A DNA stretch of 64,000 nt from a virus: positions 2,458 to 66,457 of the IMG/VR virus record IMGVR_UViG_3300025880_000014. The stretch is one strand, 5' to 3'. Shown in pieces: positions 40,505 to 61,735 of the stretch; within the stretch, counting starts at the first letter, position 1, and every line of letters starts with the position of its first letter. The notes beneath the pieces were generated by a model that saw nothing but the letters and a program-made list of their open reading frames with translations, did not search any database and was not told the DNA's origin. Both the position numbers and the translations under genes were made by a program.

Positions 40505-40510
40505 ATACTT

Positions 40511-40769: not shown

Positions 40770-40776
40770 AGCTTAA

Positions 40777-41370
40777 TTATTTGTAATGTCCTCCTCCTAG
40801 CCATAAGACAAAAGATTTTCTAGTACCTTTAGTTACGGGTTTAACTGAGTGTAACATATAACTTGGAAATAAGACTACATTTCCTTTTCCTCGAGGAGCG
40901 GTCAATACATTTGTATCTAGAGATTCTCCACCTAGCCAAAAGCATAAATCTCCACCTTCGTATTCATTACTATCAGACAATTGAACAGTAATAGATACCT
41001 TTCTAATAGATAAATTCTTATCTCCAACGTCTTGGTGCCAATCATATTTACCAAACTCAGACGCTTCATATTCAGTATATTGAATTAGCTCAGGAGCAGT
41101 ATGTAAATCGAAATTCCATAGGGTTTGATTTGCTTCAGTTGCCATGGCAATTAATTTTTCATAAAGCCATGCCCATTCTTCGCTCTGTGGAATCCATTTA
41201 ATATTAGATTTTCTGTCTTCTGTTTCTCCACCTTGAGTTTCTGCTCGAACGTATTCAATATTAGCAACCCCTTGCTCAATACTTCTTAATTCTTCAGCTG
41301 AAAATCCTTGATCAAACCAGTAATACTGTTGAGCTTCGTTTTGTTTTGGTTCAAATGTAAAATTATTCAT
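40777..41370 (-). CDS. 2OG-Fe(II) dioxygenase (prolyl hydroxylase / PKHD-like)
   Basis: YDWHQD...RKVSITVQLS...YEGGDL...LFPSYMLHSVKPVTKGTRKS, giving HxD...H...R. Confidence 0.9.
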   Translation of the reverse strand: MNNFTFEPKQNEAQQYYWFDQGFSAEELRSIEQGVANIEYVRAETQGGETEDRKSNIKWIPQSEEWAWLYEKLIAMATEANQTLWNFDLHTAPELIQYTEYEASEFGKYDWHQDVGDKNLSIRKVSITVQLSDSNEYEGGDLCFWLGGESLDTNVLTAPRGKGNVVLFPSYMLHSVKPVTKGTRKSFVLWLGGGHYK

Positions 41371-43216
41371 CTTCTCTATATGTTATATTTACTGCACCTT
41401 CTTCTTCACCAAATCTAGATCTTGCGTTAATAGGCCATTGTGGATCCTCTTCATATGCCCAATCATGCTGACCTAATTCTTCAAATCTTTCTTTAATTCT
41501 TTCATTATATCTTGAAGCGATTGTACGTGTTCTTCTTTGTATATCTGCTCTAGATAGATCATGTGTATTTCTATGACCTTGATTACTATATAAAAATTGA
41601 ATATAGCTTAACTTAGGTATCTTACACATGATAGTGTTTAAGAATGTTCTAATAATTAATTCGTAATCATCAACAACTGTTAAACTTCTATTATGTCCTC
41701 CGATTGCAAAGTATGTAGATCTTCTCCACGCTCTAATGTGATTAGGAACTCCAACAATGTGTCTAATTGTTTTTGGATTAATATTCTGTTGATTTGCAGG
41801 ACTTAGCATTCTACCTTGATATTCTTCTTCTCTATAATTACCATATCCTAATGCAAAACCAGGACCGTATTTTTGATTTTCCCATTGTTCATTTACTTCT
41901 GCAGTATCACCGTAAAAGAATCCGCATTCAGGGTGTTTTTGTGCGGCGTTATGTAAATCCTGTGCGCATGTTACTGCGAGTAAATCATCGTGATCTAGTT
42001 CTGCGATAATATATCCTCTAGCCATTGCGTTTGCTCTCCACTTGACCTCTCCGATAATCCCACCTGATTTTTCTCTAAAATCGTATAGCTTAACTCTAGG
42101 GTCATTTGCTGCAATCTGCTCGGCAATCTTAAGTGTTTTACCACCATCAGTTGAATCGTTCATTAATACCCATTCCCAGTTGTCATACGTTTGAGCAGCG
42201 ACTGAGTTATATGTGTTTATTAACTTTTCACCTGTGTTATATATTGGAGTTGTAAAAGATATCATGCTATGATCGTCCATATTTGTCGGATCTAACATTG
42301 CATTTTCAGAAACATTATACGCAATATCTCCTACATTTTTTAAATCATTATCATTATCTATATTGATCCATTTTCTCCTAAATTGAAGAGGTAGTTTTGA
42401 TAGATATCTAAAATCAGAAGAACTCTTTCCTCGAGTTACTATTGCATCTGGTTTAAAACTGGATATTTTTTTTCTAATATCAGTATCATCCTTTGCATAT
42501 TTAACCTCTAAGTTGTCATCCTCGTAATCAAGTATTTTAGTAGTTTTCATTACTGGTTCTCCAGGTCCTATATATAAAATCCTAGGTAGTTTAGGTGTTG
42601 ACACTTTTTCTAATTCATTGTAATATGAAAGAATTTCATTAATCCAAACGAATGTATCTGGGTGGTTCTTATATACTTCTTCGATAAAGTAACCATCTGC
42701 TGCATAATCTGCTGTGAAACCATATTTTTCAAAAAGCTCTGATCTAAATAATATTTGAGCTATGTCTGTTTTTCTGAAACCAGTAGATTCTGGAGTAGAT
42801 TCTCTGTATTTTAATCCGGTAAAATCTTTACCATCAACTGCTTGTCCAACCATTATGATTTTCTTTTCAGAATTTACAGGTAGCATTACGAAATCCTCGA
42901 CTCTTTGATAAAATTCAGGATGCATTATATTGTCGTCATCTAATAAATAAAACCACGAATGATCTAAGCTCCTTATTAGACTGGTTGTTTCAGGGTACAT
43001 CATCCCGCCATGTTGTCCTTTAATAAAATGTATTGTTGTATTTGACTGATCTAAAATAGATAATAGATTCGCATCAATATCCTTCAGAGCACCTGTGTCA
43101 AACATAATGTGCCAATGTACCTCTACTCCTCTTGTTTTAGAAGTATCGAATACAGTTGGTTGTATTTTTAATAAATTAGATGTTCTAGTACATCTTGTGA
43201 TTACGTTAATTTTCAT
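41363..43216 (-). CDS. Tandem GT-A (GT2-like) glycosyltransferase, two catalytic domains
   Basis: N-domain FYLLDDDN and ADYAADG; C-domain SFTTPIYNT, WEWVLMNDST, ELDHDD, VVDDYEL. Confidence 0.85.
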   Translation of the reverse strand: MKINVITRCTRTSNLLKIQPTVFDTSKTRGVEVHWHIMFDTGALKDIDANLLSILDQSNTTIHFIKGQHGGMMYPETTSLIRSLDHSWFYLLDDDNIMHPEFYQRVEDFVMLPVNSEKKIIMVGQAVDGKDFTGLKYRESTPESTGFRKTDIAQILFRSELFEKYGFTADYAADGYFIEEVYKNHPDTFVWINEILSYYNELEKVSTPKLPRILYIGPGEPVMKTTKILDYEDDNLEVKYAKDDTDIRKKISSFKPDAIVTRGKSSSDFRYLSKLPLQFRRKWINIDNDNDLKNVGDIAYNVSENAMLDPTNMDDHSMISFTTPIYNTGEKLINTYNSVAAQTYDNWEWVLMNDSTDGGKTLKIAEQIAANDPRVKLYDFREKSGGIIGEVKWRANAMARGYIIAELDHDDLLAVTCAQDLHNAAQKHPECGFFYGDTAEVNEQWENQKYGPGFALGYGNYREEEYQGRMLSPANQQNINPKTIRHIVGVPNHIRAWRRSTYFAIGGHNRSLTVVDDYELIIRTFLNTIMCKIPKLSYIQFLYSNQGHRNTHDLSRADIQRRTRTIASRYNERIKERFEELGQHDWAYEEDPQWPINARSRFGEEEGAVNITYREDE

Positions 43217-43227
43217 TTAATGTGGTT

Positions 43228-44160
43228 TTATTGTTCAATGTCAAAAAAGAACATGTGGAAAAATCTTGCATTATCAATTGCATCTCCAAAGTATTCAGTT
43301 GCTGCGTGTAATTGCGATGAGTTAAATATTACTAGTCTATTATATACGTTTCCAATATCATCAATCTTTTCAAATTGAGTTCCATCGTAGAAGTTCATTT
43401 CTTTATTAGTACCTCTGAATGTATCTACGTATTCATCTCCCATTCTAGATTCTTGACCCGGAAACGATGAAATTCCTGTAACTTTACTTCGATACATTGC
43501 AGTTCCTGTTTGTGGAGGTGCGTCTGGGGTTAAGTAAACCATTGCAGCATACATTTGACTATCTACATGGTATACTATAGGTTGATCTGCTGTACAGAAT
43601 TGAAATACACCATTAGCGTATCCACCATTGTTCCAGTTTGTTATTTTTCTACCTAATACTTCTTCAAGTTTTTCCTTAGTGCCATCTATAATATATCTAG
43701 ATTGAGATCTTTGTCCTTTGTGATATTTAGACGGTAAAAACTCTAAATTATTCATAGCATATTCTCTGACTAAATCAGGATCTGCATAGAAATTATCAAC
43801 AACAATAACGTCTTTATCTGTTTTATTAAATCCAGATGAAGAAGCTGGCCATTTTGCTAAAGAAATAAGTTCAACTGGCGCTGCATTATTTAAACTAATC
43901 CATAGTTTTTTCGTAATATCTTCGTGTAGAATCATTATATTAAATCCTACATTTTCCGGAATTGTTCCTTTATAAAAAGAAAAAACATCTGGCCTTTTTT
44001 CCCATTCAATATTCAAGGATTTTCCATCTAATAGAACGTCAGTTACTATAGTATCTTTAGTTATTGAACCTACCCATCCTCTTGCGTACCAATATCCATC
44101 GGTGCCTTTTTTAATAGAATCAATGTTTAATTTTACATTGTTTAAATTAGTTTCGTGCAT
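43228..44160 (-). CDS. 2OG-Fe(II) dioxygenase-like protein (DUF6445-like) with an extra N-terminal domain
   Basis: VVDNFYADPD.VRE, YHVD...AAMVYLTP...GT, YNRLVIF...LHA, R.FHMFF. Confidence 0.75.
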   Translation of the reverse strand: MHETNLNNVKLNIDSIKKGTDGYWYARGWVGSITKDTIVTDVLLDGKSLNIEWEKRPDVFSFYKGTIPENVGFNIMILHEDITKKLWISLNNAAPVELISLAKWPASSSGFNKTDKDVIVVDNFYADPDLVREYAMNNLEFLPSKYHKGQRSQSRYIIDGTKEKLEEVLGRKITNWNNGGYANGVFQFCTADQPIVYHVDSQMYAAMVYLTPDAPPQTGTAMYRSKVTGISSFPGQESRMGDEYVDTFRGTNKEMNFYDGTQFEKIDDIGNVYNRLVIFNSSQLHAATEYFGDAIDNARFFHMFFFDIEQ

Positions 44161-44177
44161 TACTTTAAATTTTAATA

Positions 44178-44206
44178 ATTATACATTAAATGTTTGATTT
44201 GTTTAT
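44178..44206 (-). promoter_or_regulatory. Putative class 2 promoter ATAAAC-N17-TATAAT (overlapping an ATATATA late-type motif)
   Basis: 18 nt upstream of the oxygenase ATG, just after the terminator. Confidence 0.6.
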
Positions 44207-44213
44207 ATATTAC

Positions 44214-44244
44214 AAAAAAAAGGATCCCAATGGGATCCTTTTTT
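44214..44244. terminator. Bidirectional intrinsic terminator A8-GGATCCC-AAT-GGGATCC-T6
   Basis: Perfect stem flanked by A and T tracts, after collagen A. Confidence 0.85.
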
Positions 44245-44265
44245 AATATTAAGTATGTGAGTTGA

Positions 44266-46860
44266 TTATATTTGCCCTTTGAGGCCTCCACCAGCGCCTC
44301 CGGTTTGCGTAACTAATCCATTAACGAATGTGACATTGTGTCCCGTACTAAAGTAAATGGTTTCACTAATCCCACTAGTTGGTCCGTTAGTTCCTTGAGA
44401 TCCTCGAGGACCCTTTACTCCCGCAGGACCAAGTTGGCCCGTATTTCCAGTAAATCCTTTATAACCTTGTGCTCCATTGGTACCTTTAGCTCCTGGAGCT
44501 CCTTTAGCTCCTTGAGAACCATTATTACCCTTAAGACCCTGTGGCCCTCTTGGTCCGGTGCTACCATTTAGTCCTTTATAACCTGTTGGTCCTACTAGCC
44601 GTGCTCCTTGTGGTCCTCTATATCCAACTCCTAGACTACTACCAGTAGTTCCTTGGAATCCTCGAACTGTTCCAGTTGGTCCTTTATAGCCGGTAAGTCC
44701 TTTAAATCCTGTATAGCCTGTAATAGTAGATCCAGTGGTTCCTTTTAAACCCTGTGGCCCGACATATCCTTGAACTCCTTTTGGACTTGCTCCAGTATTA
44801 CCTTGTGCTCCTTGAGGTCCAGTATATCCTTTTGCTCCTCCTGGTTGTGATCCTTTAAGACCTTGATCTCCCTGAACACCAATAAATCCAATATACCCCT
44901 TAGGCATTGCTCCTTTAGCACCCTGATTTCCTTGGGCTCCTTGTGGTCCTCTATGTCCAGTTGGAGAATCTCCAATCGGTCCGGTGTTACCATTTAGTCC
45001 TTTATAACCTGTAACTCCTTTATATGAGGTTGGACGTACACCTTGAGTTCCCTGTGGTCCTCTTGGTCCAGTGCTTCCGGTTGGTTGTGCTCCTTTATCT
45101 CCTTGAGTACCTTGTGCTCCTTGTGGTCCTCTTGATCCTCCGGGCTGTGCTCCTTTATTTCCTTGGAATCCTCTTGGTCCTGTTACTCCAATAAATCCTT
45201 TTGGCTGAGCTCCTGTATATCCTTGAACTCCTTGAGCTCCTTGAACTCCTCTAAATCCTGTTGGATTTGCTCCTTGGAAACCTCTTTCTCCATTAATTCC
45301 TGTGTAACCGGTTGCTCCTGTTGGTGAAGATCCTTGAACTCCTCTATAACCAGTTGCTCCAATAAATCCAATATACCCCTTTGGCATTGCTCCTTTTAAT
45401 CCTTGGAAACCTCTTGGTCCTGTTGGTCCAGTTGGCGAAGTTGGTCTAGCTCCTTGGAAACCTCTTGGTCCCGTATTTCCAGGATCACCGATAATTGCGT
45501 CATATGCAGGTCCTGTTGGTCCTGTATATCCTGTTGGTCCGTTTGGTCCTATGTGTCCTTTTGGACTTGCTCCGATATTACCCTGTGCTCCTTGAGATCC
45601 TTTAAGACCAGTATATCCCTTTGGACTTGGTCCTGTATATCCTGTTGGTCCGTTTACTCCTTTATCTCCTTGGAATCCTCTATTAGTACTTCCTTGAGAT
45701 CCTCTAATACCCTGTACTCCTTGAAACCCTCTTGGTCCTGTTGGTGAATTACCAATAGCTCCTTGAAAACCTCTTGGTCCAGGATCTCCTGTTTGAGCAG
45801 CTGGCGTACTTCCAGTATTTCCTTGAAAACCTCTTTCTCCGTTTAATCCTTTGTCTCCAACTGGATTTGCTCCTTGTGCTCCTTTAAAACCAGGATAACC
45901 TTCAGCTCCTTGAAAACCTTTTGGACTATTTCCAACGTCTCCTTGAAAACCTCTATCTCCGTTTAATCCTTTGTCTCCAACTGGATTTGCTCCTTGTGCT
46001 CCTTTAAAACCAGGATGACCTTCAGCTCCTTGGAAACCTTTTGGTGAATCACCAACATTTCCTTGAAAACCTCTGTCTCCAGTTTGTCCTACTTGTGCAG
46101 TTTGAGTTGAACCCTGTGCTCCTTTTAGTCCGGTAGCACCCTGTGAACCTTTATGTCCTTTTTGATTTGTACCTGCAGAACCTTGAAATCCTACATGTCC
46201 AACAAAACCAGTTGCTCCACCTGGATTTAAACCCGTAGTACCTTGATCTCCTTGAAAACCTCTGAAACCAGTTGCTCCTGTTAATTGATCTCCCTGAAAC
46301 CCTCTTGGTCCATCAGGTCCAATATCACCAACGTAAGCTGTAATTACATTACCCTGTGATCCAGTTGAACCTTGATCTCCTTTTATTCCTTTAAGACCAT
46401 TAGTTATTTTACCTGCATCTCCATCTGTTCCTTGATTTCCTCTAAAACCTTCTGGTCCTTCTGGTGAATCTCCAATTGTTCCTTGGAATCCTCTAAAACC
46501 TTGATCAGCAGTACCTTTATTTCCTTGAAAACCTCGATCTCCTTGAAAACCTATATTACCTTCATAACCTTGATGTCCTTGTGGACTGTCTCCTTGAAAA
46601 CCTCTGAAACCAGTATCTCCAACAGGTTCTAAACCTGCAGATCCTTGAACTCCTTTATCTCCTTGAAAACCTCTATCTCCTTGAAAACCTTGAGCTCCAA
46701 CAATACCTTGAAAACCTTGATCTCCTTGAAAACCTTGAGCTCCAACAATACCTTGGTCTCCCTGGTCTCCTTTCAATTCAGGATAGTTATTAGCATCAAA
46801 GTTACCAGTATGTAAGGGAGTTTCTCCCCCTACAAGTGATCCTGTATTTAATTTTGCCAT
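44266..46860 (-). CDS. Collagen-like fibre protein, chain A (864 aa), with periodic interruptions
   Basis: Gly-X-Y from aa 31 to about 828, with 34 one-residue-short interruptions. Confidence 0.9.
45841..46080. repeat. 120-bp tandem duplication in collagen A (40 aa = 14 triplet equivalents)
   Basis: 45841-45960 vs 45961-46080: 110/120 identical by manual comparison. Confidence 0.9.
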
Positions 46861-46900
46861 GTTATTTTTATTCTTTTTTTATATATAATTAACTTATTGG

Positions 46901-49558
46901 TTATTGGATAAATCCGTTTGAAACAATATAGCCTGTTCCATTATCGTCTGTGAAAAATCCGTTAAAACCATTACCTATAGATCCACTTCCATGATAACCT
47001 TGTGGTCCTCTTGGTCCTGTTGGTCCATATCCGACTGGTCCCATACTTCCAGTTAATCCTCTTGCTCCTGCTGTTCCAGCTCCTCCGCCAGATCCTTGGA
47101 ATCCTCTTGGTCCTGTTGATCCATTTGCTCCTTGATATCCGACTGATCCTACTATCTGATTTCCTTGTGCTCCTGTTGCACCCTGGGCTCCTGGTATTCC
47201 TGTATATCCTTGAGGTCCTCTTGCTCCTTGAACTCCGTTTGGTCCTTTATATCCTGTTGGTCCATTATTACCTTGTGGTCCTCTTGACCCCGTTGGTCCT
47301 GTTGAACCTGTAGCTCCCTGTGGTCCCGTATTTCCTTGTGATCCCTGTGGACCAGTTGGTCCTTTATAACCTCCACCTCCGGCGGATCCGGATCCTCCTT
47401 GATATCCTCTTGGTCCTGTATTACCAGTGGCTCCTTGTGCACCTTGGAATCCTGATATTCCTTTGTTTCCAGTGGCTCCTTGTGTTCCTCTATCTCCCAC
47501 TGCCGAAGTAGTTCCAGTAAGTCCTTTATTACCAATAAATCCAGTATAACCTTTTGCTCCAGTTACTCCTTGTGCTCCAGTTGATCCCTGTGCTCCTTGA
47601 TTTCCTTTAGCTCCAGTATTTCCCTGTGCTCCTGTTAATCCAGTTGCTCCTTTTAATCCAGTATATCCAGTTACTCCCTGTGCTCCTTGATTTCCTTGTG
47701 ATCCGTTAACTCCTGTTTTACCAATAAATCCAGTATAACCTGTTGCTCCAGTTCCTCCTTGTGAACCGTTAACTCCAGGATAACCAGTTGGTCCCGTTGG
47801 TCCTTGATTTCCAACGGCTCCAGTTCCTCCAGTTGCTCCTTTAGCTCCAACAAGTCCAGTATATCCTTTTGGTCCGGTTGCACCCTGTGCTCCTGTAAAT
47901 CCAGTAGGTCCTGTTGAACCTTTAGCTCCCTGTGCTCCTTGTGCTCCTTTTACATTAGTAAATCCTTGAGGTCCCGTTGGCCCTTGAGGACCGGTGTTAC
48001 CAACCGCAGATGTTGTTCCTGTTAATCCTTTAAAACCAGTAGCTCCTTTTGCTCCTTGTGCTCCTTGTACTCCTGTTAATCCTTTAAAACCAGTAGCTCC
48101 TTTTGCTCCTTGTGCTCCTTGTGCTCCTTTAGGTCTTTGAGATCCCTGAGGTCCCTGAGCTCCTTTTGCTCCTTGAGAACCTTTATTACCAGTAGCTCCT
48201 TTAGCTCCTATTGCTCCCTGGAATCCTCTTTCACCAAGTGAACCTTGATTTCCGATAACACCCTGGGGTCCAGTTGATCCCTGTGCTCCTTGATTTCCTT
48301 TTACTCCTTCAAATCCTGTTGAACCAACAATTCCTATATAACCAGTATCTCCTTTGAAACCGGTAAATCCTGTAGATCCTTTAGCACCCTGTGCTCCAGT
48401 AACTCCTTGGAATCCCTTTGGTCCCGTAACTCCTTGTGGTCCTCTTCCACCAGCTCCGCCAGTTAATCCTTGATAACCAGTTGCTCCAATATTACCTTTA
48501 GCTCCTTGATTTCCTTTAGCTCCAGTATCTCCTTTAAGTCCGTTAGATCCTGTAATACCAACATACCCAGTAGAACCTGTAGCTCCTGTTGCTCCTTGAT
48601 AACCAGTTGCTCCAATATTACCTTTAGCTCCTTGATTTCCTTTAGCTCCAGTATCTCCTTTAAGTCCGTTAGATCCTGTAATACCAACATACCCAGTAGA
48701 ACCTGTAGCTCCAGTATCTCCTTGATAACCTGTTGCTCCAGTAGATCCTTGCGCTCCTTGAGATCCAGTACTTCCTTTATCTCCTAAAAGACCTTGAAAT
48801 CCTCTTTCACCAGGATCTCCTGGTAAAGAATCCGAAGCAGTTGCTCCTTTAAATCCTTTTTGTCCTGTTGAACCTTTAGCTCCCTGAGATCCTTTAACTC
48901 CATTAGTTCCAGGTAATCCTTCAAAACCGGTAGATCCTTTAGATCCCTGTGCTCCATCAACTCCGGTAAATCCTTTTAAACCGGTTGAACCTTGTGATCC
49001 TTTATTTCCTTTAACTGATGTTGCTCCTTTTGCTCCTTGGAATCCTCTTTCTCCAGTATCTCCTTGTGTACCTTGTGTACCTTTAATACCGACAGAACCT
49101 TGACTTCCTTGAAAACCTCTTTCTCCGTTAATTCCTTTTACACCCTGTGCTCCAGTAAAACCTTGGAATCCTTGAAGTCCAATAGAACCTTGATCGCCGA
49201 CTTGTCCTTGATAACCATTAGAACCATTAGGACCTAATATACCTGTTATTCCTTTTTCTCCTCTAATTCCAGTAGCTCCGGTAAAACCTTGAAGACCAGT
49301 AGATCCTTGATTACCTTTACTACCAGTAGATCCTTGATCACCTTGACTACCTTGATAACCCCCAGTTCCAACGAAACCTTGATTACCTGTATCACCTTGA
49401 TGACCGACACTACCGTCGGATCCAACAGATCCTTGGGATCCTTGAGATCCCAATTCACCGTTCGGTCCAATAAGCTGAGGAAAATTCGTGCTATTAAGGT
49501 TACCACTGTGTAATACGAGATTACCGTCTAACGTAGTACCTAAGATAAATTTTGCCAT
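46901..49558 (-). CDS. Collagen-like fibre protein, chain B (885 aa)
   Basis: Gly-X-Y from aa 31 to about 859 (277 triplet equivalents). Confidence 0.9.
48017..48124. repeat. 54-bp tandem duplication in collagen B ([15 protein letters not shown])
   Basis: Identical run starting at 48017 and 48071. Confidence 0.8.
48471..48722. repeat. 126-bp tandem duplication in collagen B (14 triplets)
   Basis: 48471-48596 vs 48597-48722: 123/126 identical. Confidence 0.9.
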
Positions 49559-49593
49559 GTTATTATTTTTATATTTTTATTTGTTTTATATTG

Positions 49594-52467: not shown

Positions 52468-52521
52468 ATCTTTGTTTTTATTATTTTTTAGTTACTCCTG
52501 TTTTATTTATTCCAATTAATA

Positions 52522-55500
52522 TTAATCGAATGAGAATGTAATGTCTCCATTTGCATCTCTTTCAATTCTTGCCGTTGGGTTACCGTTAGCATCTTCGAAA
52601 TAAATAGCTTTATCATTGGCGATTGTTATTGAATCTCCATCAAATGCTCCAGTTTCTCCTTGGAATCCTTGATCTCCTTTAGCTCCAGTTAAACCCTGTG
52701 CTCCAGTATCTCCTTTGAAACCTTGATCTCCTTTGAATCCTTGGTCTCCTTTAGCTCCAGTTAAACCCTGTGCTCCAGTATCTCCTTTGAAACCTTGATC
52801 TCCTTTGAATCCTTGGTCTCCTTTAATACCTTGAATACCATCGTCTCCTTTAGTACCTTGAACTCCTTGAATACCTTGAATACCATCGTCTCCTTTGAAT
52901 CCTTGATCTCCTTTTAAACCAGTATCTCCTTTGAAACCTTGATCTCCTTTAAGACCTTGAATACCTTGAATACCATCGTCTCCTTTAGTACCCTGAACTC
53001 CAATAACTCCTTGTTCCCCTTGGAAACCTTGAATACCTTGCTCTCCAGTATCTCCTTTGAAACCTTGATCTCCTTTAAGACCTTGAATACCTTGAATACC
53101 ATCGTCTCCTTTAGTACCTTGAACTCCTTGAATACCTTGAATACCATCGTCTCCTTTGAATCCTTGATCTCCTTTTAAACCAGTATCTCCTTTGAAACCT
53201 TGATCTCCTTTTAAACCAGTATCTCCTTTGAAACCTTGATCTCCTTTAAGACCTTGAATACCTTGAATACCATCGTCTCCTTTAGTACCCTGAACTCCAA
53301 TAACTCCTTGTTCCCCTTGGAAACCTTGAATACCTTGCTCTCCAGTATCTCCTTTGAAACCTTGATCTCCTTTGAAACCTTGATCTCCTTTAGCTCCTAA
53401 AGTACCTGATTCTCCTTGGAAACCTTGATCTCCTTTAAGACCTTGAATACCTTGAATACCATCGTCTCCTTTAAGACCTGTATCTCCTTTAAGACCAGTT
53501 TCTCCTTGGAATCCTTGATCTCCTTTAGCTCCAGTATCTCCCTGGAAACCTTGAATACCTTGTTCTCCTTGATCTCCTTTAAGACCATCAATACCTTGGA
53601 AACCTTGATCTCCTTTAGCTCCAGTATCTCCTTGGAAACCTTGATCTCCTTGGAAACCTTGGAAACCTTGATCACCCTGTGCTCCAATTTTCATTGGTGT
53701 GAAAGATACAATAATTTGACCATTTGCTGATGGGATGTTCGCTGCGTACGCGTCGTTAGTCATGTGTTCCGCAGAAGAAGTACCACCATCGTAATTACTG
53801 TTTGAACCACCAACTCTTACCATGTCTACTCTAAGATCTCCTCTTCCGGCAGAACCTAAAATAATGGAAGCGTTTGATGCTTCATATAAATGATATTTAC
53901 TAGAGTCTCCATTCTTAGAAACTTTTACGTAAATTCTATCGTAACCATCAGATACCATATTTGTAAATAAAGAATTCATGTGGTTGATATCTTGCAATCC
54001 GTTTGCGATATCTGAGAACCACCATTCTTGAGAACCTCCATAAATAAATGAAGATGCTTCAGTATGTCCTAATTGATTAACGTTTGTGTATTTATTATCT
54101 GAGAAGGTAATACCATCATAAACAACTGATAAACCACCAGCGTTACCTACAGTACCTTGGAATCCTTGATCTCCTTGATCTCCTTTAAGACCTTGGAAAC
54201 CTTGATCTCCTTGGAAACCTTGGAAACCTTGATCTCCAGTTTCTCCTTGAATACCTTGTTCTCCTTGATCTCCTTTAAGACCAGTATCTCCTTGGAAACC
54301 TTGATCACCTTGGAAACCTTGATCACCTTGGAAACCTTGGAAACCTTGATCTCCTTTAGCTCCTAATGTACCATCAACTCCTTGGAAACCTTGATCTCCT
54401 TTAGCTCCAGTATCTCCTTGGAATCCTTGATCTCCTTTAGTACCCTGAACTCCGATAACTCCTTGTTCTCCAGTATCTCCTTTGAAACCTTGAATACCTT
54501 GCTCTCCAGTATCTCCTTTGAAACCTTGATCTCCTTTAAGACCTTGAATACCTTGCTCTCCTGTATCTCCTTTAGTACCCTGAACTCCAATAACTCCTTG
54601 TTCCCCTTGGAAACCTTGAATACCTTGCTCTCCTGTATCTCCTTTAAGACCAGTTTCTCCTTGGATACCTTGGATACCTTGTTCTCCAGTATCTCCTTTA
54701 AAACCTTGATCTCCTTTAAGACCTTGAATACCTTGAATACCATCGTCTCCTTTAAGACCTGTATCTCCTTTAAGACCAGTTTCTCCTTGGATACCTTGGA
54801 TACCTTGTTCTCCAGTATCTCCTTTAAAACCTTGATCTCCTTTAAGACCTGTATCTCCTTTAAGACCAGTTTCTCCTTGGATACCTTGCTCTCCTGTATC
54901 TCCTTTAAAACCTTGATCTCCTTTAAGACCTTGAATACCTTGTTCTCCAGTGTCTCCTTTGAATCCTTGATCTCCTTTAAGACCAGTTTCTCCTTGGATA
55001 CCTTGGATACCTTGTTCTCCAGTATCTCCTTTAAGACCAGTTTCTCCTTGGATACCTTGAATACCTTGTTCTCCAGTATCTCCTTTAGTACCCTGAACTC
55101 CAATAACTCCTTGTTCCCCTTGGAAACCTTGAATACCTTGCTCTCCTGTATCTCCTTTAAGACCTGTATCTCCTTGGAATCCTTGATCTCCTTTAAGACC
55201 AGTTTCTCCTTGGATACCTTGGATACCTTGTTCTCCAGTATCTCCTTTGAAACCTTGATCTCCTTTAAGACCTTGAATACCTTGTTCTCCAGTATCTCCT
55301 TTAAAACCTTGATCTCCTTTAAGACCTTGAATACCTTGCTCTCCTGTATCTCCTTTAAGACCTGTATCTCCTTGGAATCCTTGATCTCCTTTAAGACCAG
55401 TTTCTCCTTGGATACCTTGTTCTCCAGTATCTCCTTTAAGACCAGTTTCTCCTTGGATACCTTGAATACCTTGTTCTCCAGTATCTCCTTTAGTACCTAC

Positions 55501-56361
55501 AGTACCTTGAACTCCGATAACTCCTTGTTCCCCTTGGAAACCTTGAATACCTTGTTCTCCAGTGTCTCCTTTGAATCCTTGATCTCCTTTAAGACCAGTT
55601 TCTCCTTGGATACCTTGGATACCTTGTTCTCCAGTATCTCCTTTAAGACCAGTTTCTCCTTGGATACCTTGAATACCTTGTTCTCCAGTATCTCCTTTAA
55701 AACCTTGATCTCCTTTAAGACCTTGAATACCTTGTTCCCCAGTATCTCCTTTAGTACCTACAGTACCTTGAACTCCGATAACTCCTTGTTCCCCTTGGAA
55801 ACCTTGAATACCTTGATCTCCTTTAAGACCAGTTTCTCCTTGAATACCTTGTTCTCCTTGATCTCCTTGGATACCTTGGTCTCCTTGGATACCTTGATCT
55901 CCTTTTAATCCTTGATCTCCTTTAATACCTTGAATACCATCGTCTCCTTTGAAACCTTGATCTCCTTGAAGACCTTGATCTCCTGTATCTCCTTTAGTAC
56001 CTACAGTACCTTGAACTCCGATAACTCCTTGTTCCCCTTGGAAACCTTGAATACCTTGATCTCCTTTAAGACCAGTTTCTCCTTGAATACCTTGTTCTCC
56101 TTGATCTCCTTTAAGACCAGTTTCTCCTTTAAGACCAGTTTCTCCTTTGAAACCTTGATCTCCTTTAATACCTTGAATACCTTGTTCACCGGTATCTCCT
56201 TTAAAACCTTGATCTCCTTGAAGACCTTGATCTCCTTGAAAACCTTGAACCCCATCAATACCCTGATCTCCTTGGAAACCTTGATCTCCTTGTGTACCTT
56301 GATATCCGGATCCTTGATCTCCCTGAGGACCTGCGGTAGAAATATATGCTGAATATGCCAT
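52522..56361 (-). CDS. Collagen-like protein D (1279 aa): two Gly-X-Y tracts (about aa 11-741 and 893-1240) around a ~150-aa globular insert
   Basis: Built from GDQ/GFQ/GLK/GDT/GEQ/GIQ modules; almost Pro-free. Confidence 0.9.
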   Translation of the reverse strand: MAYSAYISTAGPQGDQGSGYQGTQGDQGFQGDQGIDGVQGFQGDQGLQGDQGFKGDTGEQGIQGIKGDQGFKGETGLKGETGLKGDQGEQGIQGETGLKGDQGIQGFQGEQGVIGVQGTVGTKGDTGDQGLQGDQGFKGDDGIQGIKGDQGLKGDQGIQGDQGIQGDQGEQGIQGETGLKGDQGIQGFQGEQGVIGVQGTVGTKGDTGEQGIQGLKGDQGFKGDTGEQGIQGIQGETGLKGDTGEQGIQGIQGETGLKGDQGFKGDTGEQGIQGFQGEQGVIGVQGTVGTKGDTGEQGIQGIQGETGLKGDTGEQGIQGETGLKGDQGFQGDTGLKGDTGEQGIQGLKGDQGFKGDTGEQGIQGLKGDQGFKGDTGEQGIQGIQGETGLKGDQGFQGDTGLKGDTGEQGIQGFQGEQGVIGVQGTKGDTGEQGIQGIQGETGLKGDTGEQGIQGIQGETGLKGDQGFKGDTGEQGIQGLKGDQGFKGDTGEQGIQGETGLKGDTGLKGDQGFKGDTGEQGIQGIQGETGLKGDTGLKGDDGIQGIQGLKGDQGFKGDTGEQGIQGIQGETGLKGDTGEQGIQGFQGEQGVIGVQGTKGDTGEQGIQGLKGDQGFKGDTGEQGIQGFKGDTGEQGVIGVQGTKGDQGFQGDTGAKGDQGFQGVDGTLGAKGDQGFQGFQGDQGFQGDQGFQGDTGLKGDQGEQGIQGETGDQGFQGFQGDQGFQGLKGDQGDQGFQGTVGNAGGLSVVYDGITFSDNKYTNVNQLGHTEASSFIYGGSQEWWFSDIANGLQDINHMNSLFTNMVSDGYDRIYVKVSKNGDSSKYHLYEASNASIILGSAGRGDLRVDMVRVGGSNSNYDGGTSSAEHMTNDAYAANIPSANGQIIVSFTPMKIGAQGDQGFQGFQGDQGFQGDTGAKGDQGFQGIDGLKGDQGEQGIQGFQGDTGAKGDQGFQGETGLKGDTGLKGDDGIQGIQGLKGDQGFQGESGTLGAKGDQGFKGDQGFKGDTGEQGIQGFQGEQGVIGVQGTKGDDGIQGIQGLKGDQGFKGDTGLKGDQGFKGDTGLKGDQGFKGDDGIQGIQGVQGTKGDDGIQGIQGLKGDQGFKGDTGEQGIQGFQGEQGVIGVQGTKGDDGIQGIQGLKGDQGFKGDTGLKGDQGFKGDDGIQGIQGVQGTKGDDGIQGIKGDQGFKGDQGFKGDTGAQGLTGAKGDQGFKGDQGFKGDTGAQGLTGAKGDQGFQGETGAFDGDSITIANDKAIYFEDANGNPTARIERDANGDITFSFD
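52650..53685. repeat. Low-complexity repeats (second collagen tract of D)
   Basis: Repeated ccttgaataccatcgtctcc and aaaccttgatctcc blocks. Confidence 0.85.
54150..56330. repeat. Low-complexity minisatellite of 9-bp-multiple modules (first collagen tract of D)
   Basis: Recurrent near-identical blocks such as ccttgatctcctttaagacc and ccttgttctccagtatctcc. Confidence 0.85.
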
Positions 56362-56389
56362 AGTTTAATTTACTTTATTTTTATTTTTA

Positions 56390-57154
56390 TTAGTCTAATG
56401 AGTTTTTCTCGTATACTATATCGAAAAGATCTCCTCCTCCGATTTCATATCCTGCGAAATTTGAATTCCAAAACAGTTCATCACCAGCTTCTAAATCTGC
56501 AACAGATTTGGCAGTGATACCTGCGTTGTTAGAGAAATATACATCTCCTGTTTTTTCTCCGTAAGTTTCAGTAACAGCTACACCGTTAATATAAACCTGT
56601 ACAGTTGAATCTGCGAAAGGAGTATAGTCTAATGTAATACCTGTTGCCGATTCATCTCCGTTAGATGCAAGAGGTGTTAAATCAGCCTGTGTGTATTCAG
56701 AACCCTGTGCTACCTGAGTTGGACCTAAACTTGGTCTCCATGGTAGAACTTGTGCTTTTGTTGCTGAAATCGCTTGTAAAACTGGATTGCTGTATGCATA
56801 CGCTGGATCAGAAGCATCTACAAACGCTGCGATAGAACCTGAATCAGATTCATCAACTACGTAAAAAGTACCTGGAGTTAAATTCCAAGTCGATACTTCA
56901 ATGTTACCAATTTGTACTGCAATAAAATTAGAATCATCAGTAGCTTCTTCAACTACTAATCTTCCCAATTTGTCGGCAGTTTTAGAATCTGCTAAAACCC
57001 AAGAACCGTTAAAGAATGCAATAACATTCCCTGCTGCAAAACCATGAGCAGCTTGTTCATAACTTGATTTTAAAGATCCTGATGCCAGTTGAGAATCGAT
57101 AGACTCTAACTTTGTCTGTAAGCCTTCGATTTGCTTAATTTTTAATTGTGACAT
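56390..57154 (-). CDS. Fibre-associated structural protein (254 aa)
   Basis: C-terminal domain paralogous to that of 61921-63147; heads the collagen operon. Confidence 0.55.
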   Translation of the reverse strand: MSQLKIKQIEGLQTKLESIDSQLASGSLKSSYEQAAHGFAAGNVIAFFNGSWVLADSKTADKLGRLVVEEATDDSNFIAVQIGNIEVSTWNLTPGTFYVVDESDSGSIAAFVDASDPAYAYSNPVLQAISATKAQVLPWRPSLGPTQVAQGSEYTQADLTPLASNGDESATGITLDYTPFADSTVQVYINGVAVTETYGEKTGDVYFSNNAGITAKSVADLEAGDELFWNSNFAGYEIGGGDLFDIVYEKNSLD

Positions 57155-57279
57155 AGATTTTTAATTTTTTTTATTTTTTTATAATTTAAAAGAGGCTTTT
57201 TAACCTAATTTATCAATTCTATATATCATGATTAAAGAGGCGTAATGTCTATATACCTCCATAATATGGTAATATAATT

Positions 57280-57882
57280 ATGATAATAATTATGATAAAT
57301 AGTATAATGAATAGTATTACTAAGAAGATAGTTAGAGATTACATATATTTTAGAGAAACATTAGATGACGTAAAATCTATTTCTAGTGATGCGGAAGGTA
57401 TGTTCAGAGACGCAATGCACGAGCATAACGAGGTTGCACTAACAGCTCTCACTCCACCGGAAGGAGCACCTCCTATTAAAAAAATTGATGAAGAACTTGT
57501 TGTAAAATTTGAAGACAAGCTCTTTAAAAAGCTTTTTAGAAAGATAGCGGTATTATGCCATCCAGATAAATTAGATGATTCCTACTCTGAAAGAGAAGCT
57601 GCATTTTTAAAAAAATGCTATGAAGATCTTAATACTTCTAACCAAACATATGATTGGGGATTGTTGTTAAAGGTTGCTATGGAACTGGATGTTGAAATTC
57701 CGGAATTGAGCGATGAGCAATTTATTAATATTAATAATAATATAGAATCTATTAAAAATACTATTAACCAGTTTGAAGGATCTATGGCTTATAAATGGTA
57801 TACCCTCTCTGACACTGATGCCAAGAAAGGGTATTTAGAAAGCTGTGCTTCTATATTTATGAATAGTTTAAAGAATCGTTAA
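57280..57882 (+). CDS. Divergent J-domain protein (internal HPD motif)
   Basis: KKLFRKIAVLCHPDKL...FLKKCYEDLN; only substantial plus-strand gene; start may be M6 or M10. Confidence 0.65.
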   Translation: MIIIMINSIMNSITKKIVRDYIYFRETLDDVKSISSDAEGMFRDAMHEHNEVALTALTPPEGAPPIKKIDEELVVKFEDKLFKKLFRKIAVLCHPDKLDDSYSEREAAFLKKCYEDLNTSNQTYDWGLLLKVAMELDVEIPELSDEQFININNNIESIKNTINQFEGSMAYKWYTLSDTDAKKGYLESCASIFMNSLKNR

Positions 57883-58661
57883 ACGTCCCACTTATCAGTT
57901 AGATGGCATCTTACATAAACAGGTGCCTGATACGCAATACCATTAGGATATTCTGATTGCAATCTCGTATAAAAGTCTACATCTTCTGACGTGTCTTTAG
58001 AGATAACATCTCTCCATTTTGTTGATAAATTAGCTTTGTGCATAAATAACCAGGGTGCCATTATCTGTCTGCCTGGTTTTATTTGAATTGGCTTCCATGC
58101 CTCTGGTAAACCTTCTATCTGAATTGCCGGTGTTTCTGAAGGATCTAATATAGCATTCCCATTAGTTAGCTCAGTTGAAACGGACTCATGATCAAACCAT
58201 GAGGTATTTATCCACCAATCTTTTTCTGGGTTTGCGTTAAAATATAAAAGAGATGTCATCGTTGCATTTGGCATTAAAAAATCATCTGAATCCATATACA
58301 TTACAACGTGGCCGGTTGCTGCAGCTGCACCTAGTCTTCTACCGAATCCTCTATAATATCTTCCTTTATCTTCTATTTCCTCGTACATTTGAGGAGTATC
58401 TGTTCTATCGAAATATATTAGTTTTATATTTGGTGTGTTCTTGTGTGATCTATTAAATAGTTGATGTGTTTTATTACACCCATCTGCTACTATAATAAGT
58501 TCGCAGTTTTTATATGTTTGGTTTTGAAAACTTTCGACTGCCCTGTGAAATTTACCAATAGGATCTTTTCTTGAATTTTCGTAGTTTTCTAGGTTTACTT
58601 GCATCACTATAGATATTTTTATCTTGTTTAGTGATTCGAATATTTCTTTAAAATTGCTCAT
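57879..58661 (-). CDS. GT-A (GT2-like) glycosyltransferase
   Basis: RAVESFQNQTYKNCELIIVADG, VVMYMDSDD, SEDVDF. Confidence 0.85.
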   Translation of the reverse strand: MSNFKEIFESLNKIKISIVMQVNLENYENSRKDPIGKFHRAVESFQNQTYKNCELIIVADGCNKTHQLFNRSHKNTPNIKLIYFDRTDTPQMYEEIEDKGRYYRGFGRRLGAAAATGHVVMYMDSDDFLMPNATMTSLLYFNANPEKDWWINTSWFDHESVSTELTNGNAILDPSETPAIQIEGLPEAWKPIQIKPGRQIMAPWLFMHKANLSTKWRDVISKDTSEDVDFYTRLQSEYPNGIAYQAPVYVRCHLTDKWDV

Positions 58662-59857
58662 TATTTATATAGGTTTGTTTTCCAATTATATTCATAAGAT
58701 AATTCATGTGTTCCTGGTTTAAATAAATTATCTATTAACTTTTTATATGTATCTACGAGATCTACGTTAGTTGACAAATAACGGTCTAATACTTTTTTAC
58801 TGTTTTCATTATATTGATCTAGATTATTGTCATGTTCCTCAAGTGCCAATTTTAATTGATCGGCTCCTTGTGATATATTAAATCCTTCATAATAATATCC
58901 TGCATCCTTTATCATGTCTGCGTTGTGCACTATAGGGTACCCGAAATAGAGTGCGTCTAGGTATGCATAGTTTAATGGGTTTTCCCATTGGTGTGATAAG
59001 ACTATGTCTGTTTCACTTGCTAAGAACGTCGATACTGGGTACCTTCCAACATACTTTATTTTGTTATCTGGAGAGTTAACTATGTCGAAATTCTTAATCA
59101 TCGCTAAATAGTATTTATTCTTTAGTAATTTCTTGCCAGATCCTATGTATATTTGTTTAAACGCGTTTTTACCAGATTCTCTAAAAACTCTTTCAGCAAT
59201 CATGATAGTCATCAATGAATATTTAACAACATTTATATTTGGTTCCATTACAGATAGCTTTTTATCTTTAGCATCCTTTGGAATATATCCCGGAATCAAT
59301 TTGCCGGCACGTTTTAGTAATTTATTAAATTCATCAAGCGGCTCAGGGTCCCATATGAAAGGAACTGTTTTTATCTGAGAATCCTCTTGTCTGTATATTG
59401 TTTTAAAGTATTCTAGGTTTTGATATTCCTGTTGAGGTATTACCCATGTTTCGTCGTGGCCTCCGTCCCATGAAGGAACCATTGACTCGGTAATTGTATC
59501 AAACATTACTCGTTCCATGTCAACTACATAACTATTTCCACATTGGTATTTTACTACTTTTAAATTTGGATTTTTGCTTTTCATTAAAGATATCCTACTT
59601 GTAGGCAAAGAAGCACCTACCATAAACATTAAGTCTATCTCATTCTCCATCGCTGTGAATTTTGCGATTTTATATTTATTATAATCCCAGTTTACTTTAG
59701 TTAAATCAGAAACATTCTTAGCTGCGTCTAAAATATAAACATCAAGTCCTTCTATTTGGTTTAACATTTTAGATAGGTTCAGCGCATTTAATTTAATGCC
59801 GTTGATCCACATGCTTTCATATTCCTTTGTTAGAGATATTATAATTCCTACTTTCAT
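58661..59857 (-). CDS. DUF2827-like protein (predicted GT-B glycosyltransferase)
   Basis: WINGI..NA, VPFIWDP, VMEPNINVVK, VLSHQWENPLNYAYLDALYFGYPIVHN. Confidence 0.65.
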   Translation of the reverse strand: MKVGIIISLTKEYESMWINGIKLNALNLSKMLNQIEGLDVYILDAAKNVSDLTKVNWDYNKYKIAKFTAMENEIDLMFMVGASLPTSRISLMKSKNPNLKVVKYQCGNSYVVDMERVMFDTITESMVPSWDGGHDETWVIPQQEYQNLEYFKTIYRQEDSQIKTVPFIWDPEPLDEFNKLLKRAGKLIPGYIPKDAKDKKLSVMEPNINVVKYSLMTIMIAERVFRESGKNAFKQIYIGSGKKLLKNKYYLAMIKNFDIVNSPDNKIKYVGRYPVSTFLASETDIVLSHQWENPLNYAYLDALYFGYPIVHNADMIKDAGYYYEGFNISQGADQLKLALEEHDNNLDQYNENSKKVLDRYLSTNVDLVDTYKKLIDNLFKPGTHELSYEYNWKTNLYK

Positions 59858-59889: not shown

Positions 59890-59922
59890 TAAAAAAGAAA
59901 GGGTCCCCGTTAGAGGACCCTT
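59890..59922 (-). terminator. Intrinsic terminator after the coiled-coil fibre gene
   Basis: AAGGGUCCUC-UAAC-GGGGACCCUU followed by UCUUUUUUU. Confidence 0.85.
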
Positions 59923-59962: not shown

Positions 59963-61735
59963 TTAGTGTTGGTAAACGAATACTACTTCGTCTTGTGCAT
60001 CAATCACATAACCTGGGTTAGCTAAAGTAACTTGTGGTCCTGCAACTGTTTGAACAAATACTCTGTGCCCGTTAACGAATACATCTACTAAAGATGCTTG
60101 GTCTTCCTGTACAGGGTTTGCTAAAGTATAAACGAATCCAGCTCCTGGGAATGTTTCAGTAGCCATTTGATCATCTTCGATGATAGCAGCTTCTAATACA
60201 TCTAATCTACCGTCTTGAACTGATTGCTCAGCGTTAGTAGAAGCGATTTCAGCAGCTAGTGCAGAATCAATTCTTGTAACGTCAGCGTTAGTAGCAGCGA
60301 TTTCAGCGTTTAACTGAGCTTGTAAGTCAGCATCGGCGTCTCCTCTTAATTGAGCCTCAGCAGCCATTTCAGCGTCATGCTTAGCTTCTAATGAAGTAAA
60401 GTCTGCGTTAGTAGCAGCGATTTCAGCAGTTAATGCAGCTTCTACACCAGATACTCTAGTATCGATTGAAGTGAATTCTGCAGTGATAGCTCCTTCTAAA
60501 GAAATAACATCAGAATTAGTAGCAGTGATTTCAGCTTGTAAAGCATTATCGATTCTAGTAACATCAGAGTTAGTAGCAGCGATTTCAGCAGATAAAGCAG
60601 AATTGATACTAGTGATATCAGAATCAGTAGCAGCGATTTCAGCGTTTAAGTTAGAAATTACTACAGCTAAAGCGTCATCATTTACAGTATCAACAGCGTT
60701 GATTAAAGAAACAACCTCAACGAATGTATCTTTGTCAGCGTCAGCAGCTAATAAGATTGCGTCGATTCTTGCGTTTTCTGCATCAATGTTAGCTTGTAAC
60801 GTTGAGTCAGCAGCAGCATAAGCAGCTTCAACTCTTACGAAGTCAGAATTAGTAGATGCAATTTCTGCAGCTAATTCTCCTTCAACTCTTGTAAAGTCAG
60901 AGTTTGTAGCAGCGATTTCAGCTTGTAAAGCAGAATCAATACTTGTAACGTCTCCATTAGTAGCTAAAATTTCTGCAGCTAAAGCAACTTCTAAAGAATC
61001 AACTGAATCAACTAAGTCTCCAGATACTGCACCTAATCTTAAGTCAATAGAAGTAACATCAGAATTAGTAGATGCGATTTCATTGTCTAAAGCAGATTGT
61101 AAAGCAGTGTCAGCTAGTGCTCTTGCTGATTCCTCAGCAGCCATTTCAGCGTCATGCTTAGCCTCTAATGAAGTGAAGTCAGAGTTAGTAGCTGCAATCT
61201 CTGCAGATAATTCTCCTTCAACTCTTGTAAAGTCAGAGTTTGTTGCAGCGATCTCTTGAGAGATTGCTAAGTTAATGCTTGTGAAATCTGCGTTAGTTGC
61301 AGAGATCTCATTGTTTAAGTCAACGATTACCGCTCCTAAAGCGTTATCATTTTCTAAATCAACAGCATTGATTAAAGAAACAACCTCAACGAATGTATCT
61401 TTATCAGCATCAGCTGCTAATAAGATTGCGTCGATTCTTGCATTTTCTGCATCAATGTTAGCTTGTAACGTTGATTCAGCGCCTGTCGCTCTAGTTTGTT
61501 CAGCAGATAAATCTCCTTCTAATCTAGTAACGTCTGCGTTTGTAGCTGATACTTCACCAGCTAAAGCAACTTCTAAAGAGTCAATTGATGCGTCTAATTC
61601 AGTTTGAGCTGCAACGATCTCATCACCAACGTACTTTGCGATGTCAGATGTGTTTGCAATCTCAAAAGAAGATGTAGCTGCCCAGTTTACTGTGCTTAAG
61701 AAATCCTTAATTTGTTTTGAACGAATTTGTGCCAT
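59963..61735 (-). CDS. Acidic coiled-coil fibre/whisker protein (590 aa) with 18-residue repeats
   Basis: About 14 xEIxxTNxD repeats; duplicated DADKDTFVEVVSLINAVD segment; strong codon bias; own promoter motif and terminator. Confidence 0.7.
   Translation of the reverse strand: MAQIRSKQIKDFLSTVNWAATSSFEIANTSDIAKYVGDEIVAAQTELDASIDSLEVALAGEVSATNADVTRLEGDLSAEQTRATGAESTLQANIDAENARIDAILLAADADKDTFVEVVSLINAVDLENDNALGAVIVDLNNEISATNADFTSINLAISQEIAATNSDFTRVEGELSAEIAATNSDFTSLEAKHDAEMAAEESARALADTALQSALDNEIASTNSDVTSIDLRLGAVSGDLVDSVDSLEVALAAEILATNGDVTSIDSALQAEIAATNSDFTRVEGELAAEIASTNSDFVRVEAAYAAADSTLQANIDAENARIDAILLAADADKDTFVEVVSLINAVDTVNDDALAVVISNLNAEIAATDSDITSINSALSAEIAATNSDVTRIDNALQAEITATNSDVISLEGAITAEFTSIDTRVSGVEAALTAEIAATNADFTSLEAKHDAEMAAEAQLRGDADADLQAQLNAEIAATNADVTRIDSALAAEIASTNAEQSVQDGRLDVLEAAIIEDDQMATETFPGAGFVYTLANPVQEDQASLVDVFVNGHRVFVQTVAGPQVTLANPGYVIDAQDEVVFVYQH
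60690..61480. repeat. About 120-bp dispersed direct repeat (60690-60811 and 61359-61480; offset 669 bp)
   Basis: Encodes STLQANIDAENARIDAILLAADADKDTFVEVVSLINAVD twice. Confidence 0.85.

Follow-up and report, generated by a model that had tools for sequence, protein, structure and literature searches.

Hydroxylation and glycosylation of collagen are textbook chemistry in animals, and there are few microbial or viral examples, namely mimivirus L230, vCPH of the Chlorella virus PBCV-1, and BclA of Bacillus anthracis. BclA and related exosporium collagen-like glycoproteins carry sugars O-linked to the Thr of their GXT repeats, and to our knowledge no oxygenase is part of that system. PBCV-1 A064R, a multi-domain protein that joins two glycosyltransferase (GT) domains and a methyltransferase, reportedly builds the capsid glycan. 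Our analysis concerned a possible further case in a phage. A 64-kb stretch of DNA (hereafter the window) from IMG/VR record IMGVR_UViG_3300025880_000014, itself a fragment consisting of one 71.6-kb viral contig, encodes four collagen-like chains that are bracketed by genes for Fe(II)/2-oxoglutarate (2OG) oxygenases and GTs. An earlier note on this DNA had proposed that the phage matures its Pro-poor collagen by Lys hydroxylation and glycosylation or by Thr glycosylation. The comparisons described here support a functional tie between the enzymes and the collagen-like genes, and they suggest, with a probability that we put at roughly 0.55, that the enzymes modify the collagen-like chains. The collagen-like partners are Pro-poor and Gln-rich. 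The enzyme set combines DUF6445 with a PiuC-like oxygenase and one particular lineage of GT-A enzymes, and it occurs in jumbo phages and further phage lineages, in a cultured cyanophage and in several groups of bacteria.

The reasoning is close to that of Iyer et al. 2010 (PMC2938197), who predicted that bacterial 2OG oxygenases (beta-hydroxylase/PhyH) and sulfotransferases modify co-encoded collagen-like or tail-collar proteins. In both cases gene neighbourhoods point to a co-encoded collagen-like protein that would be hydroxylated, the hydroxyl then being decorated. However, the oxygenase families differ, the decoration is sulfation in those operons and glycosylation here, and DUF6445 was not treated. 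A preprint on DUF2827 (bioRxiv 10.64898/2026.01.22.700529) reports that members of this family in Burkholderia, Veillonellales and Pasteurellales are constantly found next to trimeric autotransporter adhesins and regards the family as a probable cytoplasmic protein glycosyltransferase, citing structural homology to transferases. The DUF2827 gene of the window belongs to the same Pfam family and likewise adjoins genes for long trimeric fibrous proteins, the function being predicted in both settings, but its neighbours are a phage coiled-coil fibre and collagen-like chains instead of autotransporters. Phage transferases that glycosylate the structural proteins of their own virion are known from mycobacteriophages (Freeman et al. 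2023, cited in PMC12619734); as far as that work is presented in the citing paper, the targets are the C-termini of capsid and tail-tube subunits, with no oxygenase or collagen repeat, unlike here. Studies of pelagimyophages and 'moraphages' located GTs in host-recognition regions or among core genes and assigned them to host lipopolysaccharide (LPS) or to DNA, or left their role open (PMC7029224, PMC12619734).

The genes downstream of the collagen genes (2OG oxygenase, GT and 2OG oxygenase, all on the minus strand) and those upstream (GT2, DUF2827 and a J-domain gene) are present where the earlier note had placed them, with a Pfam score below the cutoff for the J-domain. Within a clade of relatives the block p228-p408-coiled coil-DUF2827-GT2-(J)-p254-collagen(s)-DUF6445-GT-(197-aa oxygenase) is kept down to about 46-50% identity, with one to four collagen genes of 600 to 2000 residues and with the 197-aa oxygenase gene as an optional member. 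In most clade relatives whose flanks are long enough, a DUF6445 homologue (49-96% identity) follows the one to four collagen genes at a distance of 90-150 bp; in three sub-lineages it lies 1.2-3 kb downstream of them instead. Taken alone, this linkage could be inherited synteny, since PhoH and an exonuclease are also conserved nearby. Linkage was also found outside the clade. A non-syntenic phage lineage has the same enzyme set in a different order, with S74-ended collagen-like fibres followed by a 2OG-FeII_Oxy_3 oxygenase, a methyltransferase (MT)-GT2-TPR protein, DUF6445 and then a GT2 that is homologous to the C-terminal half of the 617-aa GT of the window. In some members of this lineage DUF6445 is fused to the MT-GT2-TPR protein, and the fusion together with the TPR repeats argues for one pathway with a protein partner. 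The cultured Synechococcus cyanophage DSL-LC02 carries a mannosyltransferase-methyltransferase-DUF6445 cassette between genes annotated as collagen-like and tail fibre. When the GTs were clustered at 70% identity, collagen-adjacent members occurred in 14 of the 22 clusters. An unbiased reverse search, in which viral contigs were scanned for runs of eight G-x-Q codon triplets, yielded 120 loci (1.02 Mb), 11 of which contained the GT lineage or DUF6445, compared with none of 119 loci (0.98 Mb) obtained with a random 14-mer (Fisher p = 7.7e-4). The enzyme mostly adjoins the collagen open reading frame (ORF) on the same strand in the 11 positive loci, and a collagen gene was found in none of the 119 control loci.

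The same pairing is present in bacterial chromosomes. In a survey with one genome per prokaryotic species, a collagen-like ORF flanks DUF6445 in 15 of 79 DUF6445 loci, and these belong to six taxa. In Thiothrix and Thiolinea, a collagen gene, a small ORF and a GT gene of the same lineage are oriented divergently from a full-length DUF6445, the cluster being set between the housekeeping genes for RNase HII and LpxB. In five Pandoraea species, a Pfam Collagen gene (E 4e-46) is accompanied by genes for a PP-loop protein, DUF6445 and a radical SAM enzyme but not by a GT gene. Judged by its gene content this appears to be a cluster for peptide modification that has a collagen-like protein as its substrate, and since it is without a transferase it favours an action of DUF6445 on protein and not on sugar. 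DUF6445-collagen pairs also occur in assemblies of Vampirovibrionaceae, Methylococcus, Saprospirales and Porticoccaceae. The earlier note had held that a lack of genomic linkage to collagen genes in relatives would count against its proposal; linkage was found in the clade, in non-syntenic phages, in the reverse search against its control, and in bacteria. In Pandoraea bronchicola (L405:7732-12124) the gene order is a (G-x-Q)n collagen with 99% Gln at Y, a PP-loop ATPase-like protein, DUF6445, a 121-aa ORF and the radical SAM enzyme, and similar clusters are located at L407, L408, L410 and L414.

Residue composition was compared between 19 collagen sets that were found through the enzymes, none of them chosen by composition. 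Just two residues are present in all 19 sets, namely Ala at X and, at the Y position of the Gly-X-Y triplets, Gln with a minimum of 8% and a median of about 53%; Gln(Y) reaches 86-99% in sets without Lys, Ser, Thr or Pro. Gln(Y) amounts to at least 29% in 12 of 13 independent enzyme-linked lineages, compared with 27% of 109 unselected viral collagen loci, which have a median of 11% (binomial 1.2e-6; Mann-Whitney 2.3e-7). A pooled Gln(Y) comparison was discarded because its negative group included loci selected for G-x-Q. The enrichment may indicate that the enzymes recognise Gln or a G-x-Q helix, or that collagens and enzymes travel as one mobile module. In host-guest peptide studies, Gln is one of the non-imino residues that are relatively favourable to the helix when placed at Y. 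Its occurrence in every set, its dominance where Lys, Ser, Thr and Pro are absent and its enrichment over unselected collagens would be consistent with DUF6445 hydroxylating the Y-position Gln of G-X-Q collagens, an undescribed modification that we consider improbable. If true, hydroxylated Gln would stand in for hydroxyproline or hydroxylysine in stabilising the helix, and its hydroxyl would serve as a sugar attachment point, where transferases exist, on repeats otherwise without hydroxyls. For the 197-aa oxygenase, a tie to Pro at X is a lead only. Its homologues adjoin collagen genes in four of 113 unselected loci, with X-Pro of at least 32% in all four, and X-Pro is 22% in loci with the oxygenase gene versus 6.6% in those without it, a difference not corrected for relatedness; a different PF13640 subfamily lies beside Pro-free collagens (L042, L046), which speaks against the link.

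What the analysis shows are gene identities, catalytic motifs, folds, transcription signals and a statistically supported neighbourhood link, across lineages, between the enzyme families and Gln-rich collagen-like genes; we infer the collagen chains as substrate, hydroxylation before glycosylation, and every target residue named here. The region would represent a fibre module composed of four collagen-like chains, accessory fibre proteins and a post-translational modification kit of its own. Most likely DUF6445, a protein-hydroxylase-like Fe(II)/2OG enzyme, would hydroxylate the collagen-like repeat. The PiuC/P4H-like oxygenase (P4H, prolyl 4-hydroxylase) might add a second hydroxylation, plausibly on X-position Pro, and the probable two-domain GT-A enzyme would then build a glycan, short or repeating, on the fibre. 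Help with glycosylation and folding within this module probably comes from DUF2827, the 260-aa GT2 and the J-domain protein. Taken as soluble, and with their own promoter apart from the collagen genes, the enzymes would act in the cytoplasm before assembly. If real, such a pathway would give DUF6445 a function and would account for the GTs that cluster in the host-recognition regions of phages and are commonly taken for modifiers of host LPS. It would also offer another way for a triple helix to be stabilised or decorated in the absence of hydroxyproline, with a bearing on recombinant collagen design and phage host recognition. Cultured carriers exist with cyanophage DSL-LC02, Thiothrix eikelboomii and Pandoraea.

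The chemistry originally proposed for the window, which is hydroxylation of Lys at Y in animal or mimivirus style with sugars on the hydroxylysine and/or direct O-glycosylation of Thr at Y as in BclA and vent-worm collagen, would find candidate residues in this phage. Among the 1120 triplets of the four chains, Y is occupied by Gln in 415 (37%), Thr in 232 (21%), Lys in 197 (18%), Arg in 61 (5%) and Pro in 11 (1%), in agreement with the earlier observation that Gln, Lys, Thr and Arg dominate and Pro is rare. X is mainly Asp, Ala, Phe and Pro, the last in 87 triplets (8%). Lys at Y is nevertheless not a conserved target, as it is absent (0%) from 12 of the 19 enzyme-linked sets, among them clade members that keep DUF6445 and the 617-aa GT (L013, L100), and does not exceed 3% in 15 of them. 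In Pandoraea, L022, L042 and L046, Ser and Thr together make up 0-3% of the non-Gly positions, and Pro is absent from several sets. PLOD/L230-type and GT25-type proteins were not detected among the window enzymes by Pfam or PDB sequence search, the transferases being GT2 and DUF2827 only by Pfam and none of the GT25/LH3 type, and lysyl hydroxylases rank below prolyl-hydroxylase folds. Animal LH3/PLOD-COLGALT1 and mimivirus L230 hydroxylate Lys of collagen, which is then glycosylated. The enzymes here are DUF6445, a PiuC-like PKHD type, GT2 and DUF2827, and Lys is mostly missing from the collagens that accompany these families. The 197-aa protein does have a P4H-type 2OG-FeII_Oxy_3 catalytic domain, but the X-Pro-Gly substrate of a prolyl 4-hydroxylase is confined to the 11 Y-Pro triplets, in contrast to the Pro-rich repeats used by PBCV-1 vCPH. 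The likeness to BclA lies in prokaryotic collagen-like fibres with Pro at X and Thr at Y and with dedicated transferases. Y is rich in Thr in the window, three transferase genes are adjacent, and the clade relative L100 has BclA-like GPT-rich repeats. Several partner collagens are, unlike BclA, almost without Ser and Thr. Neither Lys hydroxylation and glycosylation nor Thr glycosylation can thus be upheld as the conserved function, and we regard this route as quite unlikely; Thr O-glycosylation or Lys modification in this particular phage is possible.

Alternatively, the enzymes might act on polysaccharide and not on protein, be it host LPS or capsule, for superinfection exclusion or debris avoidance, or free glycan, and they would then merely share a variable host-recognition region with the fibre genes. 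GTs of pelagimyophages and cyanophages do lie in the host-recognition cluster, where the authors read them as O-chain modifiers (PMC7029224). In S-SSM7, DUF6445 is found inside a nucleotide-sugar/GT cluster, and the 617-aa enzyme resembles the two-domain polymerases of chondroitin, heparosan and matriglycan. The promoter class ahead of the enzymes also precedes genes that are non-structural by their names in the earlier note, which were not checked. We still consider an action on polysaccharide unlikely. It would leave unexplained the collagen link in bacterial chromosomes, the GT-free Pandoraea cluster and the Gln(Y) enrichment of the partner collagens; the TPR fusions point to protein recognition, and AlphaFold2 (AF2) models of DUF6445 and the 617-aa GT are compact globular domains, transmembrane segments not having been searched for. 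That the enzymes hypermodify the DNA or nucleotides of the phage, first hydroxylating and then glycosylating bases in the manner of TET/JBP systems, is very improbable. Oxygenase-GT pairs for DNA hypermodification are known in phages according to work cited in PMC12619734, AlkB homologues hold the top Foldseek rank for DUF6445, though with TM <0.5, and in one relative DUF6445 lies beside a thymidylate-synthase-like gene. The promoter class ahead of the enzymes is also shared with genes of DNA metabolism, again by the unchecked names. Both oxygenases are however outside the TET/JBP family, their Pfam assignments being DUF6445 and 2OG-FeII_Oxy_3, and DNA modification gives no reason for the repeated collagen adjacency in phages and bacteria or for the TPR fusions. 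The alternative that the earlier note itself had raised, namely that such enzymes modify capsid, DNA or host surface, loses weight for DUF6445, for the 617-aa GT and for the P4H-like oxygenase, but keeps its weight for DUF2827 and the 260-aa GT2, for which linkage is limited to the clade.

Several observations weigh against the reading that the enzymes modify the collagen-like chains. In a 236-kb relative the enzymes sit among ClpB-like, thymidylate-synthase-like and other genes with a 2383-aa collagen gene 21 kb off, and one other relative gives weak collagen matches only. In other lineages (S-SSM7, L024, L028, L031) the cassette is found beside ribonucleotide reductase or inside sugar/GT clusters, it also occurs in GT/methyltransferase clusters with no collagen gene close by, and in S-WAM2 DUF6445 and another oxygenase follow non-collagen tail fibres. 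Most collagen loci are without these enzymes: the share that has them nearby is about 9% for G-x-Q loci and 2-3% for unselected ones. The control for the reverse search consisted of random loci and not of non-collagen tail-fibre loci, so that, with S-WAM2 in view, the tie may be to fibres in general and not to collagen in particular. The lineages are moreover related, and the statistics are only roughly independent. Within the window the enzymes form a separate transcription unit, and the top whole-chain matches of the 617-aa GT are capsule and matrix polysaccharide polymerases.

The window apparently derives from a large, uncultured, marine, Lak-related phage. A baseplate protein encoded by it shares 42% identity with its counterpart in an uncultured huge phage of 462 kb and about 32-35% with the counterparts in Prevotella Lak megaphages, and the close relatives are contigs of 175-256 kb. 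The Lak-like baseplate and the large relatives suggest a piece of a large Lak-related marine phage, not of a cyanophage, and jumbo-phage status is inferred from the same two features. A megablast search of GenBank phages with both flanks gave no matches. GC content is about 32% outside the collagen genes versus 40-45% within them, and nearly all window genes are carried on the minus strand. The order in the direction of transcription is a 408-aa protein, a 590-aa coiled-coil repeat protein, a strong terminator, DUF2827, the 260-aa GT2, an opposite-strand 200-aa gene, a 254-aa protein, collagens D, C, B and A, a terminator, a promoter-like site, DUF6445, the 617-aa GT and the 197-aa 2OG-FeII_Oxy_3 oxygenase (Table 1).

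Table 1. Positions of genes and transcription signals of the collagen region, numbered from the first letter of the window.
Feature	Position	Strand	Basis or remark
197-aa Fe(II)/2OG oxygenase, P4H/PKHD type, closest to PiuC/YbiX	40777..41370	-	PF13640 (2OG-FeII_Oxy_3) E 1.2e-13; phrog_61 E 2e-30
617-aa probable two-domain glycosyltransferase: putative N-terminal GT-A-like domain, linker domain, C-terminal GT2	41363..43216	-	Pfam GT2 at residues 321-458
310-aa DUF6445 Fe(II)/2OG oxygenase, N-terminal beta-sandwich domain at residues 1-110	43228..44160	-	Pfam PF20043
Promoter-like TAAACA-N16-TATAAT ahead of DUF6445 gene	44178..44205	-	sequence motif
Intrinsic terminator GGATCCC-ATT-GGGATCC + T8, after collagen A	44214..44238	-	read in sequence
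Collagen-like chain A, 864 aa, 20-residue periodic interruption	44266..46860	-	Pfam Collagen E 3e-67
Collagen-like chain B, 885 aa	46901..49558	-	Pfam Collagen E 2e-115; 91% in triplet runs
Collagen-like chain C, 957 aa	49594..52467	-	Pfam Collagen E 2e-118
Collagen-like chain D, 1279 aa, non-collagen domain flanked by triplet blocks 19-744 and 893-1240	52522..56361	-	Pfam Collagen E 4e-179
254-aa fibre-module protein	56390..57154	-	directly upstream of collagen genes in relatives too
200-aa probable J-domain co-chaperone, opposite strand	57280..57882	+	DnaJ PF00226 E 0.003, 18.1 bits, below cutoff 27.8
260-aa GT2 glycosyltransferase	57879..58661	-	Pfam GT2 E 3.5e-9
398-aa DUF2827 protein, predicted GT-B glycosyltransferase	58661..59857	-	PF10933 295.8 bits, E 4.9e-88, full length
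Strong intrinsic terminator between coiled-coil fibre gene and DUF2827	59899..59922	-	10-pair stem + T run
590-aa repetitive coiled-coil fibre-like protein, upstream edge of fibre module	59963..61735	-	adjoins DUF2827 in all clade relatives

The 254-aa protein and the 408-aa protein (61921-63147, minus strand) have a C-terminal domain in common, and in some relatives the 408-aa homologue itself contains 129-193 collagen triplets (L376:3089-5812; L381:2869-5907). This common domain and the triplets in relatives suggest that 56.4-63.9 kb is one fibre module. In the clade relative L100 a 371-aa ORF with Hint/intein-splicing matches (L100:7702-8817) lies between the collagen gene and DUF6445. The 236-kb relative (G001 contig 133771-141079, record of L107) encodes collagen-like ORFs of 2383 and 881 aa about 21 kb from DUF6445.

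The terminator and promoter-like site between collagen A and DUF6445 indicate that the collagen genes and the downstream enzymes are transcribed separately, and the enzymes may be expressed on a different schedule. The motif TAAAC-N17-TATAAH occurs at five sites on the minus (coding) strand of the window (29612-44205), compared with 0.55 expected, which points to a distinct promoter class. The other four sites precede genes or operons that are non-structural by the same unchecked names as above. A T4-type late promoter (TATAAATA) was not found ahead of the collagen genes.

The DUF6445 protein matches PF20043 with 51.8 bits (cutoff 24, E 1.3e-13) and, weakly, 2OG-FeII_Oxy_3, and it has a double-stranded beta-helix (DSBH) that bears an H-x-D...H iron triad and a basic residue for 2OG binding. 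A PDB sequence search with E up to 1 gave no matches. Foldseek comparison of its model with PDB and Swiss-Prot gave generic DSBH matches only (TM <0.5), which do not discriminate between substrates, and a homologue search yielded about 1400 metagenomic proteins with no functional hint. Within the library searched, no paper was found that mentions DUF6445 and none on PiuC as a 2OG hydroxylase. PiuC (9ghl, E 1e-5), and not a collagen P4H, is the nearest solved relative of the 197-aa oxygenase. The 617-aa GT has a DxD motif in its C-terminal GT2 domain, its PDB sequence matches are GT2 enzymes, and its N-terminal and C-terminal halves are unrelated in hhalign. For DUF2827, the nearest Atlas feature clusters are GT-B (GT56, GT4, AGT, WsaF) with a score of 0.92, a lead level that 4-10% of shuffled proteins reach. 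Neither a PDB sequence search (E up to 1) nor tblastn against phages gave a match to it, and among viral contigs it was found within the same clade only.

In the J-domain-like protein, the segment FKKLFRKIA..CHPDK, which contains the HPD motif and the preceding basic helix II, is kept in six of six homologues, and the protein may recruit host Hsp70 for fibre folding. The position of its gene inside the fibre module is conserved in relatives, and a 401-aa version is present in L376.

All four collagen genes (44266-56361, minus strand) were confirmed (Pfam Collagen E 3e-67 to 4e-179). Gly-X-Y runs cover 80-91% of each protein, and no Cys is present in any of the four chains. Chain A is composed of 35 such runs, most of them of six triplets. 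In its strict 20-residue unit, six triplets lead up to a G-x-[S/Q/M/N]-P-[K/T]-G interruption, so that some 30 evenly spaced Pro-Lys or Pro-Thr sites result, which could be recognition or modification points. In chain D, 242 and 116 unbroken triplets flank a 148-residue non-collagen domain; the chain is built from highly repetitive G-D-Q, G-F-K and G-I-Q units and contains just four Pro in its 1279 residues. The C-termini of many enzyme-linked phage collagens (L042, L046, L034, L022, L030, L066, L100) carry the S74 intramolecular-chaperone motif (YSD-x-RLK ... IAQE ... EAIKEL) that is typical of self-cleaving tail fibres, whereas the four chains of the window are without it and have short Gly/Asn-rich motifs at their ends. 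Chains A, B and C (44266-52467, minus strand) are of similar length and have a 30-residue N-terminal motif in common. Trios of collagen genes of near-equal length also occur in relatives and in one unrelated lineage (L034:741-6912; L082:3735-8787), which suggests heterotrimeric fibres.

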